Positions 15,673 to 21,506 of a stretch of DNA of 26,165 nucleotides are shown here, piece after piece. A model generated the notes under the pieces. The model did not search any database, was not told the DNA's origin, and saw only the letters and a program-made list of their open reading frames with translations. This DNA comes from a virus (Duplodnaviria; Caudoviricetes): positions 1 through 26,165 of IMG/VR virus record IMGVR_UViG_3300031566_000313, one strand, 5' to 3'. Positions within the stretch are counted from its first letter, which is position 1. Each line of letters begins with the position of its first letter. The position numbers and the translations under genes were made by a program.

Positions 15673-16565
15673 TGCCATACGATAAGCCAATCATACAAAC
15701 CAGCAATCCTAATAAAAAGGAACATGCCAACATTCAAAGAAACAGAACCATTTTCTACGGTGAGGTTATAAGCATTGTTGATGAAACCGATGGTGGTATA
15801 ATTAAAGTTAGAATTCCTGAACTCGATAACAGAACAGGAGATAGTGATTTACCGGATTGCTACCCTTTACAACCCAAATTTTTCCATCTATATCCACAGG
15901 CTGGGGAAATGGTTAGGATTTTTGTTGAAGACAATAAATTTCCAGAAAGAAGTCGTTTCTGGTTAGGTCCAATTATCTCACAACCACAAAAAATCGGATT
16001 CGATTCGAGATTCAGTGCGCTTTCGACAACCAATCTCGGTTTAACTAAACCCCAGAAAGCACCTACAACATATCCCGATGCTGTTGGCGTGTTTCCAACA
16101 AAAGAAGATGTGGCGATTATTGGTAAAGTTAATGCTGATATCATACTCAAAGTAAATGAACTGCATCTCAGAGCAGGAAAACACGAAGATGGTGATATAT
16201 TAAGTCTCAATGTAAAGAATCCTGCACATATAGGATTAGTTTATGAGCCACTTGAAGGTAATAATGATGATTTTTACAGTAATACCATTATTCAAAGTGA
16301 TAAGATTGCCCTGATTACACATGAAGGTAATCCCAAGTTTAAAGCTGCTAGAATGACTCCAGAGGATAGAGTGAGGGTATTTGCCGAAGGACACCCATTA
16401 GCCCGTGCAGATGTCTTAATTGAAGCCCTAGAGGTCATTAGAATTGCATTACTAAACCACATTCATCCATATCCGGGTTTAGCAGCAGATAGAGCAGCCA
16501 TAATTAAAAAACTCGAAGAAATACAATTCGAAGCCATTCTACAGAAAAACGTTGTCACGAACTAA
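15672..16565 (+). CDS. Baseplate central spike (gp5/gpV/VgrG-like OB fold, HxH apex)
   Basis: GEVISIVD..GGIIKVRIPELD..P.CYPL..PQAGEMVRI..RFWLG OB-fold pattern; C-terminal NHIHPY. Confidence 0.75.
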   Translation: MPYDKPIIQTSNPNKKEHANIQRNRTIFYGEVISIVDETDGGIIKVRIPELDNRTGDSDLPDCYPLQPKFFHLYPQAGEMVRIFVEDNKFPERSRFWLGPIISQPQKIGFDSRFSALSTTNLGLTKPQKAPTTYPDAVGVFPTKEDVAIIGKVNADIILKVNELHLRAGKHEDGDILSLNVKNPAHIGLVYEPLEGNNDDFYSNTIIQSDKIALITHEGNPKFKAARMTPEDRVRVFAEGHPLARADVLIEALEVIRIALLNHIHPYPGLAADRAAIIKKLEEIQFEAILQKNVVTN

Positions 16566-16581
16566 AATTTTTGTATATTTG
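16552..16581 (+). promoter_or_regulatory. Bacteroidota housekeeping-sigma promoter (-33 TTG / -7 TATATTTG)
   Basis: TTG(16552-54)-N19-TATATTTG(16574-81), 5 nt before ATG 16587. Confidence 0.6.
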
Positions 16582-16586
16582 CTGCA

Positions 16587-17372
16587 ATGAACATCGAGGT
16601 TCCCAATAAATTTTTCACTTCATTTAACGAAGTCACGTTTCATGATGAACCACATAAATATTATGTGGATGGTAAAGAATTGGTGAGTGTTACTACATTA
16701 ATCCATCGATATCAGGAAGAATTTGACGAAGATTATTGGTCAGATTATAAAGCCAATGAATACACTCTTACTCAGAGAGAAGTGTTGCGTGCTTGGGAAT
16801 TTATAAACAAAAAGGGCACAATGAAAGGTTCGGCAATCCATGACTACGCAGAAAGATTGTTTTTAAATAAAATATTCCCCTATCCGAAACAACAGATTCT
16901 TGACGAATTCGGATTTGACCCGGTTTTACCGGAATACGAGATAACGAAAAAACATGTTGATAATTTCTATAACGATATTCAAGGAAAACTCATTCCGATA
17001 CGAACAGAGATGATAATATACGATAGAGAGTCATTAATTGGTGGAATGCTCGATATCCTATTTTATAACGTAAAAATGAAACAGTTCCAAATTTGGGACT
17101 GGAAAACCAACAAGAAATTCGATAAGGAAATGAAGTCCCGACATTTTCATGATGAATTATTTATGTTGGAAGACAGTGATTTGGAAATTTATTCGCTTCA
17201 ACTTGCCATGTATAAAATGATTATTGAGAAAAATACTGGTATAAAACTAGGAAAATCATATATTGTTTGGTTCAGTCATAATAACGAGAATTATGAAATA
17301 ATTGAGACCAAAGACAGAAGTTATTACACCAACATTATGATGAACAACAGAATCGCAGAATTAGCTGCATAG
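16587..17372 (+). CDS. PD-(D/E)XK exonuclease (RecB/lambda-exo-like)
   Basis: SVTTLI, KGSAIHDYAE, TE, GMLDIL, IWDWKT, YSLQLAMY motifs; no Fe-S cysteines. Confidence 0.85.
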   Translation: MNIEVPNKFFTSFNEVTFHDEPHKYYVDGKELVSVTTLIHRYQEEFDEDYWSDYKANEYTLTQREVLRAWEFINKKGTMKGSAIHDYAERLFLNKIFPYPKQQILDEFGFDPVLPEYEITKKHVDNFYNDIQGKLIPIRTEMIIYDRESLIGGMLDILFYNVKMKQFQIWDWKTNKKFDKEMKSRHFHDELFMLEDSDLEIYSLQLAMYKMIIEKNTGIKLGKSYIVWFSHNNENYEIIETKDRSYYTNIMMNNRIAELAA

Positions 17373-17379
17373 AAATCCC

Positions 17380-17410
17380 AACATTAACACCTAATTTAGT
17401 GGTTAATGTT
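17380..17410. repeat. Inverted repeat / hairpin
   Basis: AACATTAAC-N13-GTTAATGTT between the exonuclease and mini-sheath genes. Confidence 0.55.
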
Positions 17411-17427
17411 AGTAAAAACCAACAAAG

Positions 17428-17616
17428 ATGACAGAAGATAATAAGATTAGATGCGTTCAAAAAAAGATGGAAGTATCAAAGGAAAATGGTGAAATTTCAG
17501 ATTTTACAATTAAAGTTGAAGATGGAATTATAAACGTCTACGTGTTCCCAAAAACATCTCTTCAATACATCGTGTGTGATTTCGTAGTGACCCCCACTGG
17601 CTGCACCTTCCAATAA
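17428..17616 (+). CDS. Stand-alone tail-sheath C-terminal-domain-like miniprotein
   Basis: 62 aa; GEISDFTIKV..INVYVFPKTSLQYIVCDFVVTPTGCTF resembles sheath end GLTDFRVKM..GEIFLKPTRAVEFIGITFTITPSGASF. Confidence 0.65.
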   Translation: MTEDNKIRCVQKKMEVSKENGEISDFTIKVEDGIINVYVFPKTSLQYIVCDFVVTPTGCTFQ

Positions 17617-17643
17617 AAAAAGCCACCCGAAACGGATGGCTTT
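17615..17643 (-). terminator. Intrinsic terminator of the tail tube gene (possibly bidirectional)
   Basis: Minus-strand AAAGCCAUCCG-UUU-CGGGUGGCUUUUUUU. Confidence 0.8.
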
Positions 17644-17664: not shown

Positions 17665-18162
17665 TTATAGGTTAAGGATACATCTCCAAGGTTGAATTTC
17701 TAGTGTAATGTTTGTCAGTTCATCATTTGTATAATCGTTATCACCAAAGTCAATACTTACGATTTGACATTGCTCCAAGAACCATTTTTCAACCTCAACA
17801 CCTGTTGGGTCTAATGATTTAAGTGTAATGTCTTTTTTATAACCTGCTGCGTATCCCATACGTCCTGTAAGAGATTCAGCATGTAAACGAACCCACTCCA
17901 TAAGTTGCTGTGAAGTAGACGGACCAATTGGGTCTAGGAATGTCACTGACATCGAATCCCAAGTATATCTACCAGCAACATAGTTTTGTTCGTTCATGTA
18001 CATAATTGGGACACTATTGATTTTCATCGAAGGTCTTTTGAACTTCTGAACTTTCCAAACCTGAATTCCTAATGAGTCGTCAAATACGGCAAAGAATCTA
18101 TTGACTCTTTTTGGTTCGTATTCGAACGGCATCGTTCTTATCATTGTTTCTTCTGCTGCCAT
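17665..18162 (-). CDS. Tail tube protein (T4 gp19-like)
   Basis: 165 aa; EPKRVNRF, AGRYTWDSMSVTFLDPI, YKKDITLKSLDPTGVEVEKWFL. Confidence 0.9.
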   Translation of the reverse strand: MAAEETMIRTMPFEYEPKRVNRFFAVFDDSLGIQVWKVQKFKRPSMKINSVPIMYMNEQNYVAGRYTWDSMSVTFLDPIGPSTSQQLMEWVRLHAESLTGRMGYAAGYKKDITLKSLDPTGVEVEKWFLEQCQIVSIDFGDNDYTNDELTNITLEIQPWRCILNL

Positions 18163-18758: not shown

Positions 18759-21506
18759 TCAGCCACCTACGTCATCAAATGATGCACCAGATGGTGTGAT
18801 GGTGAATGTAATACCGATGAATTCAACAGCACGTGTTGGTTTCAAGAATATTTCACCATATAGCTCGTTTCTGTCACGAGTTTCGGGAGTGTTATTACTA
18901 TTGTCCATTTTAACCCTGAAGTCGGTTAGACCTCTTTCTCTCTTGATGCTATCAAGAATTGGGTTTACTTTATTTAAGAATTGGTCAATAGTTGCTTGGT
19001 CGTTCTGTTCGAATACAAGTCTGATTGCAACATTAGCAATAAGAACCTTGATTTGAAGCAGTAATCTACGAACATTGATTCTATCAAGTGCACTTTCTTT
19101 AACCTGAAGAGTCTTCTGACCAAAAATTGCAGTACCTGCATCAGCGAAATCAGCCATTGGGTTGATTCTACCTGCGTAGATAATATCACGTGCTTCCAGA
19201 GACAATTTATACATTGACTTCTTGGCGTTAGTTACACCACGATTCAGACCAGCAGGTGCGAACCAAGGGAATCTCACGTTATCGGTAAATGCCATCGCTC
19301 TTACAACTTCACCTGTTGGTGGAATATAAACGTTGACGTTATTCTGAGTATCACGCATCTGAATCCAAGGGAAGTAAGTACAAGTGTAGCTACTGTCGAT
19401 TTCTGTGTCTTCAAGTAATCTAACGATTTCCTCTGAAACAGTAACATCTTCTTTACCGCTTCCACCAACTGTTGGTGTAATAACACCAGCTAGTTCAGGA
19501 GAATCAATTACATATAAACTATCGGTTCTTTGCTGTTCAATCATATCGATTGTGTTCTGAACCAATGTTGTTTGGTCTGTCCAGTTAATACCGGGAGTTG
19601 AGAAAAGGTTAATTGTGACATTCTCAGGATTACTGAAAGTATCGATTGCCATTTCCCATGCTTGGAAGTCATTTGTTGGAACAACCAATGGTTGACCCGG
19701 ATGACCACTCTGTCTTCCACCTTGTACATAACCATCACCGTATGAACGCTCTCTCCTATTTACATCCCAACCATTAAAACCACCAGCAGGAACCAGTGTG
19801 AATTTCCTTGTTTTGATGTCATAATATGGATTTGTTGGGTCATCAGTGTCATTATATGTCTGGAATTTACCAGCACCACCATCAAATTCGCCTTCTGGAT
19901 AGAAAACGATACCAGTAACTCCAGAGTCCATATGGAATCCATGTGATTTTGTGAAATCATCAGGGTCTTGTCCACTATAGAAGTTAATGAAATTAAATAA
20001 GTTTTGGTTTATGCCGTCATTAGTATATGCGGTTTCTGAAATACCAAGATATGTTTTAATTATTTTATCGGTATCAGTATAACCAGTCTTATAGAAAATT
20101 TTTGGTGCAACACCTGAAGTACTACCGTCACCAGTTGCTGACATTGCGTAATTACTTTGTACGTACCCTTCAAAACCTGCTGGGAATACATCAAGAGGAA
20201 TATCATCACCCATTTCAACCATAACATATTTACTCAATAGACTGTATTCACCATCACTTGTACCGATACGCTGACCAATATAATTTGACTGACCCTTAAT
20301 CATTGTACATTTTTGGTAGGTTTCCAGTACACTTGGATTTGCGTCAGTATCGTAGAAAGCACGAACAGCAACATCGAATTCTCCTGAGTATGGGTCGATG
20401 TTTGCAATTGTTACTTTAATTTCTTGGTTTGCAGCATTACCATCTGAAATACTGATAAATTTGAACAATCTGTCAACACTATTACCCTTTAGTTGAGATA
20501 CAACCCAAGGTGTTTCTGGTGTCTGGAAAGTTGTTTCATAATCACTATATACACTAGTACTACCAGTAATCAGTTCAGTGTTAACACCGTAAGCAGAACC
20601 GTCATCATCGAGCTTCTTAATGAGGTCGGGATAAATCGCTTCAACCCAAATCATTGTTGTTTTGTCTTTCGGTCCATATCCAATAACATTAGGTAAGAAA
20701 CTGGTGTCATTAGGATTTAATGAAACCTGATATGTTCCGGTATTTGCTGTGCTTGAAGCAACCATTGTAAATGTTGCAAAAAGGTCACCAGTATCACTGA
20801 GTGTATTATTAATTGTAATATCAAGATTTGTTGTAGTAAATTCAGTAACCGGAACACTATCAACAGCAGTGTTTGAGTCACCTCTACTTCTAACTACTGC
20901 CAGAACCATATTCTCGTACTCAGTTAATGATGTACCAGTATATAGTGTCACTTCATCATAAGCAATTCCGACACCAGCAACATATGTAGTTGCAGTAAAT
21001 TCGTGAACATAATTTGTGAATACACCAGTTATAACGTTTTTAGTATAACCAGTATCAGATACACCAGTTGCTCCCAGAAATCCTAATGAAACACCCAGAT
21101 ATGAACTACCGCTAAATGGTGTGTTTCCAGTTGTTACCGTAGTTGCGGTTACTGAATCTAGGTCAACACCAGCATTTAATGTTATGTTCCAAGCATTACC
21201 TGCCTGATATCCACTAAGTCCCAATACTCTAGTTACCCAAAGTTGCTGTGCTTCTTCAAGGAAGGCATTAGCAACATAAGGTAATTGATATTGAAGTTGT
21301 CCGTCTGGAAATCTTTTAGTGCTTTGTGCCCCAAATCTTTCGAAGAACTGAGTTTGGTCTTGAATGAAGACTGGTTCGAAAGCTGGACCCTTTAATGTTT
21401 CACCAGCAAGACCTAGTGTTGTTATACCAACATTACGTGTTACGTAAGTCAAGTCTCTTTCTTTAAATTTTACACCCGGAGAGGTAAATACAAAATCTTG
21501 TGCCAT
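18759..21506 (-). CDS. Contractile tail sheath protein (T4 gp18-like)
   Basis: 915 aa; FTSPGV, GETLKGPAFEP, YFPW, PWFAPAGLNRG, FGQKTL, LDRINVRRLL, VFEQND, KPTRAVEFI. Confidence 0.95.
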   Translation of the reverse strand: MAQDFVFTSPGVKFKERDLTYVTRNVGITTLGLAGETLKGPAFEPVFIQDQTQFFERFGAQSTKRFPDGQLQYQLPYVANAFLEEAQQLWVTRVLGLSGYQAGNAWNITLNAGVDLDSVTATTVTTGNTPFSGSSYLGVSLGFLGATGVSDTGYTKNVITGVFTNYVHEFTATTYVAGVGIAYDEVTLYTGTSLTEYENMVLAVVRSRGDSNTAVDSVPVTEFTTTNLDITINNTLSDTGDLFATFTMVASSTANTGTYQVSLNPNDTSFLPNVIGYGPKDKTTMIWVEAIYPDLIKKLDDDGSAYGVNTELITGSTSVYSDYETTFQTPETPWVVSQLKGNSVDRLFKFISISDGNAANQEIKVTIANIDPYSGEFDVAVRAFYDTDANPSVLETYQKCTMIKGQSNYIGQRIGTSDGEYSLLSKYVMVEMGDDIPLDVFPAGFEGYVQSNYAMSATGDGSTSGVAPKIFYKTGYTDTDKIIKTYLGISETAYTNDGINQNLFNFINFYSGQDPDDFTKSHGFHMDSGVTGIVFYPEGEFDGGAGKFQTYNDTDDPTNPYYDIKTRKFTLVPAGGFNGWDVNRRERSYGDGYVQGGRQSGHPGQPLVVPTNDFQAWEMAIDTFSNPENVTINLFSTPGINWTDQTTLVQNTIDMIEQQRTDSLYVIDSPELAGVITPTVGGSGKEDVTVSEEIVRLLEDTEIDSSYTCTYFPWIQMRDTQNNVNVYIPPTGEVVRAMAFTDNVRFPWFAPAGLNRGVTNAKKSMYKLSLEARDIIYAGRINPMADFADAGTAIFGQKTLQVKESALDRINVRRLLLQIKVLIANVAIRLVFEQNDQATIDQFLNKVNPILDSIKRERGLTDFRVKMDNSNNTPETRDRNELYGEIFLKPTRAVEFIGITFTITPSGASFDDVGG

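Follow-up and report, generated by a model that had tools for sequence, protein, structure and literature searches.

A 62-residue stand-alone mimic of the tail sheath handshake region encoded beside the tube gene of a tailed phage

In contractile sheaths, as described in passages of PMC10457771, PMC13450770 and PMC10329688, the C-terminal domain of each subunit contains a two-stranded sheet that is completed by the N-terminal arm and the C-terminal arm contributed by two subunits in the next ring; in the same passages the sheath initiator accepts arms and the terminator donates strands. Initiators (T4 gp25, PF04965; the initiator-sized chains of Mu and Milano) are baseplate parts of 130–150 aa, and the tail terminators or collars (XM1 gp5, phi92 gp129, E217 gp29) are, according to passages that describe them, larger hexameric core proteins (161 aa in XM1 gp5) that supply C-terminal strands to the final ring of the sheath. 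Small accessory proteins can act on the tail assembly of other phages: according to portions of the respective papers, Tab (PMC10884400) and Tai (PMC11364771) are carried by prophages and satellites and target the tape measure, the central fibre or the needle, and the word "sheath" is absent from the main text of PMC11364771. Tail proteins can also be read by host defences. Passages of a 2026 survey (PMC13581612) describe Avs sensors that read conserved cores of virion proteins, and in them the sheath figures as a candidate target that is yet to be demonstrated; part of PMC11087589 describes the phage protein DSAD1, which competes with the tail tube for the sensor DSR2, an instance of a phage blocking a sensor by rivalling its trigger.

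The DNA analysed here, referred to as the window, comprises the 26,165 nucleotides of IMG/VR record IMGVR_UViG_3300031566_000313, a 26-kb virus record with tape-measure-like, tube and sheath genes; among the relatives identified via the tube protein are complete records of 321–363 kb. The window contains an intact 62-aa ORF (ATG to TAA) at positions 17428..17616 on the plus strand, which encodes the mini sheath-handshake protein (the mini). The gene occupies a slot anchored upstream by a PD-(D/E)XK exonuclease gene (16587..17372, plus strand; phrog_298, E = 1e-24) and downstream by the tail tube gene (17665..18162, minus strand; phrog_4542, E = 2e-25). The phage's own 915-aa tail sheath is encoded at 18759..21506 (minus strand; PF17482, E = 1.5e-8; phrog_23, E = 2.5e-65), and the mini gene is, as had been noted, on the strand opposite to both tube and sheath. 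A weak inverted repeat (17380..17411, plus strand; −8.7 kcal/mol, z = −1.9, 8 of 200 shuffles equally good) separates the exonuclease stop from the mini start and, among the loci searched, is present only in copies of the window's own genome. The called N-terminal extension of one family member (P0006) resembles translations of the hairpin region 17380–17411, and the element may precede a different mini subtype elsewhere. Where the mini and tube genes converge lies a terminator-like hairpin (17619..17643, found on the minus strand; z = −3.2, 1 of 200 shuffles) that likely serves both genes, and most syntenic minis have a similar hairpin downstream.

The original prediction held that this ORF resembles the end of the phage's own sheath and lacks its NNTPE loop, and both statements are borne out. 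BLASTP detected no likeness between the mini and the window's own sheath, Pfam and PHROGs scans of the single 62-aa protein gave no sheath match, and the DNA-level likeness to the own sheath gene did not exceed 14 nt. Smith–Waterman alignment placed the mini against residues 839–910 of the own sheath (window ~18777–18992) with a score of 54, reached by 0 of 2000 shuffled sequences (1 of 1000 in a repeat run), and with a 12-residue gap that corresponds to the loop. The sole PDB sequence match of the mini at E ≤ 10 was a tail sheath (E = 1.5), as were all six phage tblastn matches at E ≤ 10. A profile of the mini family matched the sheath C-terminal profile with a probability of 98% (E = 1.4e-13), and its top match in the PDB was T4 gp18 (E = 8.8e-4). 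When 17 family members were scanned, 10 matched phrog_23 (E ≤ 0.1), none matched the tail sheath family PF17482, none matched the gp25 family PF04965 at E ≤ 1, and no Pfam family covered them. Several foreign sheath ends scored higher against the mini (91, 84, 79) than the own sheath end did (62), in a comparison that is noisy and for which the foreign sheaths were chosen by the mini family profile.

The predicted fold of the mini consists of a helix (residues 3–19), a hairpin of strands 23–31 and 34–41, Pro41 and an extended arm (42–61). The best sequence matches, and those of the predicted fold, are to the C-terminal domain and arm of T4-type sheaths (T4 gp18; PF17482, phrog_23; PDB 3J2M, 9MKB, 9EV2), with which the mini shares the last helix, the beta-hairpin, the proline kink and the C-terminal donor arm. 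It retains a single acceptor hairpin together with a single donor arm; it is without the N-terminal arm, the body and the first helix, the loop is about 10 residues shorter, and the protein is unable to form a sheath. The equation of the mini with the sheath C-terminal domain consequently stands for the helix, hairpin and arm and not for the whole domain, as the first long helix is also missing (one helix in the model compared with two long helices in the complete domain). The loop is absent from all 15 syntenic minis with DNA context, and the syntenic minis, at 59–69 aa, are too short for the sheath N-terminal arm and outer domains. The span from Asp25 to Pro41 measures 16–22 residues in a 97-member mini alignment compared to 28 in the sheath, a figure that is partly circular as the alignment excludes loop-bearing, longer, fused and fragmentary matches. 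The best-conserved positions of this alignment fall in the arm and hairpin (Pro41 in 94 of the 97 sequences, Ile48 in 83, Ile23 in 77, Gly58 in 68, Phe52 in 66 and Phe61 in 62).

Like the initiators, the mini is a small stand-alone protein, and its predicted handshake fold may resemble theirs, whereas its arm is sheath-like and a separate gp25 is encoded in all five complete relatives. It resembles the terminators in keeping a donor arm, although its model contains only the helix, hairpin and arm and no ring-forming core. The mini lies outside the sheath, gp25 and terminator families as these are defined; it reuses a known domain for a role that has been partly foreshadowed elsewhere. A search of the open-access literature found no account of proteins of this kind.

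A full profile search returned 139 clusters at E ≤ 0.001. Of these, 108 (counted from the listing) are at most 90 aa long, including a few loop-bearing sheath fragments, and their stand-alone character is judged from length and a non-sheath N-terminus. Several longer members (P0091, P0095, P0126, P0132, P0100, P0143) carry the module in fusion with Cys-rich zinc-finger-like parts or also retain the first helix, and such relatives form a graded series from the whole C-domain to the minimal form. The 484-kb phage LR756508.1 has two adjacent sheath-like frames of ~830 codons (204863-204934, 208271-208417). Presence in the slot is patchy. The exonuclease and tube genes are convergent in 66 distinct intervals, 14 of which hold an intact mini, 1 a truncated mini and 51 none (only intervals with complete gene ends were counted). 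A mini is present in 7 of the 13 intervals whose exonuclease identity is at least 80%, and a fifteenth copy is on a contig without a tube gene (L097). Two loci (L013, L028) carry remnants that look like deletions also cutting the neighbouring GIY-YIG gene. Three of the five complete relatives have no mini at all, and in the other two the mini belongs to another subtype, whose N-terminal part differs and whose gene is surrounded by small genes at a distance from the tail cluster. In this second subtype (69–80 aa; L145:1489-1731 (−), L146:1489-1698 (−), L175:4001-4237 (+), LR756500.1:49482-49661 (−)) the shared hairpin-and-arm end is preceded by a different, small N-terminal part, and the genes lie among small accessory genes away from the tail cluster. 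Two clusters of different subtypes, P0008 and P0031, both have a longest contig of 6043 bases and could be neighbouring tandem paralogues. The exonuclease–tube interval is an insertion hotspot in ten loci (L007, L027, L045, L048, L052, L079, L033, L129, L124, L133), where ORFs resembling GIY-YIG or other endonucleases lie behind the tube gene; in L133 a ClpP-like ORF precedes the mini, and all these names come from reading the translations.

Selection was assessed from dN/dS in 15 mini pairs at ≥45% identity, which are not independent. Thirteen of the 15 had significantly fewer amino-acid changes than neutral (p down to 4e-12), with dN/dS of 0.05–0.24 in ten, 0.36–0.39 in two and an undefined value (saturated dS) in one; the remaining two (0.49 and 0.57) were not significantly below 1. 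These DNA-level values cover subtypes other than that of the window's ORF, within which the proteins are 71–82% identical. Within one subtype, dN/dS of the minis is close to that of flanking genes, and the pairs gave no sign of positive selection. The median identity among the 15 minis is 34%, compared with 92% for the sheath C-domains (10 loci), 90% for the tube and 78% for the exonuclease. Loci L020 and L021 have a tube dN of 0, yet their minis are identical at 22 of 62 positions with saturated dS; between L001 and L021, dS is ~3 for the minis compared with 0.4–1.1 in flanking genes. Between subtypes the dS of the minis is saturated and that of the flanks is not, and the diversity of the minis therefore stems from old, long-diverged alleles that were exchanged or sorted in one slot.

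A candidate Bacteroidota-type primary-sigma promoter, consisting of TTG, 19 nt and TATATTTG, is located at 16552..16581 (plus strand), 5 nt before the exonuclease start. It is the sole plus-strand match to the two-part pattern in the window, and of 63 distinct regions upstream of exonuclease genes, 53 contain TTG-N19-TATATTTG. Because this pattern matches the Bacteroidota −33/−7 consensus, given in part of PMC6847099, the host is likely a member of Bacteroidota. The candidate promoter likely drives both the exonuclease and the mini gene, and the overlap of the mini with the exonuclease stop in L020 and L043 suggests a single transcript. The proposal that the mini follows a host-promoter-driven exonuclease is thus corroborated at the level of motifs, and TATTTAT does not occur within 100 nt upstream of the mini gene, also as predicted, or of the exonuclease gene; the pair is preceded by the host-type motif and not by the motif found before structural genes. 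The sequence GTATTTAT occurs 22–74 nt before 7 of the 27 genes examined, sheath and tube among them (window 4196, 7108, 8291, 18205, 18695 and 21568 on the minus strand, 13056 on the plus strand), and is likely the phage's late promoter. A search covering tyrosine integrases found one in none of five relatives compared with 14 of 14 controls, and for this reason phages of this group are probably lytic; one relative is classed as a provirus.

The mini is neither universal nor does it follow the phage's own sheath, and it is therefore unlikely to be a virion part or an essential chaperone; with selection acting on its relatives, it is hardly a relic either. With these set aside, a trans-acting mimic in a conflict remains, and the mini is likely a decoy in a conflict with host immune sensors or with rival phages, a host sensor and a rival sheath both being partners that fit. 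We favour the former, with a probability of roughly 0.38: as a decoy, the mini would keep a host immune sensor occupied and thereby prevent it from recognising freshly synthesised sheath. It would be made early from the host-type promoter and bind this sensor through its exposed strands; binding would not trigger the sensor, since the first helix, loop and body are missing, and different alleles would answer different sensors. DSAD1, as partly described in PMC11087589, similarly occupies the site where DSR2 binds a tail protein, although that case concerns the tube and a known sensor, whereas the mini is a recognisable sheath homologue and its sensor is hypothesised. In favour of the decoy are the patchy presence of the mini, the selection in relatives, the long-diverged alleles of the slot, the higher scores with foreign sheath ends, the host-type promoter motif, the probably lytic lifestyle and the precedents of DSAD1 and Avs. 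Against it, the retained portion coincides precisely with the assembly interface, as would be expected just as well of a protein that binds sheath; a mimic of the trigger could activate the sensor; the pairs gave no sign of positive selection, two of them having dN/dS near 0.5; and no sheath-sensing defence was found in the open-access literature.

The closest competitor, which we consider rather unlikely, is a dominant-negative poison, as had been proposed, of other contractile sheaths, whether those of a co-infecting myophage or those of an injection system of the host. Lacking the N-terminal arm and body, the mini would either insert its arm into the groove left open on a growing sheath or soak up the arms of free subunits, and the lattice would stall; the own sheath would be spared through poor affinity or late excess. 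The retention of both donor arm and acceptor hairpin (from the alignment and the predicted fold), the capping of sheaths by C-terminal strands of terminators (passages of PMC10457771 and PMC13450770), the higher scores with foreign sheath ends and the allele exchange in the slot are all in its favour, and blocking tail assembly is a known strategy, as described for Tab and Tai in portions of PMC10884400 and PMC11364771. Those two proteins, small and accessory like the mini, act from prophages or satellites, however, while the phages considered here look lytic, so that a benefit would need co-infection; strand pairing is presumably in part backbone-driven, which brings a risk of self-poisoning, and the slot holds no evident counter-gene. 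An anti-immune decoy, which the original prediction did not include, accounts at least as well as a poison for the host-type promoter, the swapping of alleles and a lifestyle that looks lytic, and we prefer the decoy because the phages look lytic, the promoter is host-type and a poison would endanger the phage's own tail, a weighting that draws on general knowledge of phage accessory genes.

An optional regulator of the own sheath, shielding the handshake strands of free subunits and limiting off-pathway polymers until baseplate and tube are ready, is improbable. It would agree with the location of the mini, which in this clade is separated from the sheath gene by ~1 kb, with its expected production before the sheath and with the selection on it, and is contradicted by the 51 of 66 intervals without a mini, by the conservation of the sheath domain (81–98%) that the minis do not share, and by the second subtype far from tail genes; the delay of premature polymerisation that had been proposed is disfavoured as an essential function in that most relatives build tails without the mini and the own sheath is not tracked. 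Slightly less probable still is a repurposed module whose donor and acceptor strands form a dimer or ring of its own, with a target unrelated to sheath recognition; relatives fused to other N- or C-terminal parts (including L145, L146 and L175) are as expected of a portable module, against which stands the conservation of the sheath-specific arm end (Ile48, Phe52, Gly58 and Phe61). A virion part, whether sheath cap, terminator aid or second initiator, is very unlikely given the separate gp25 genes, the complete relatives without a mini and the missing structural-gene motif upstream, and the suggestion of a cap or terminator is accordingly disfavoured. A decaying duplicate of the sheath 3′ end, to which the two deletion remnants might point, is the least credible of all and is largely refuted by the purifying selection in relatives and the identical loop loss in all syntenic copies, along with the DNA likeness of at most 14 nt.

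These results support a stand-alone mimic of the sheath handshake region that is not a pseudogene. They lead us to propose, tentatively, that large myophages maintain an exchangeable repertoire of minimal sheath mimics as decoys against undiscovered receptors of the handshake strands, in bacteria that here are likely Bacteroidota; it would be equally new if a lytic phage used such a protein as a dominant-negative chain-stopper against the contractile tails of its rivals. If the decoy reading is true, minis could be used as bait to find sheath-reading receptors. Myophage tails, tailocins, extracellular injection systems and T6SS all share the handshake sheet, and a natural protein of 60 residues with donor and acceptor strands only would either serve as a probe for sheath-sensing immunity, not yet found according to passages of the 2026 survey (PMC13581612), or be a naturally occurring inhibitor of the way sheaths assemble.
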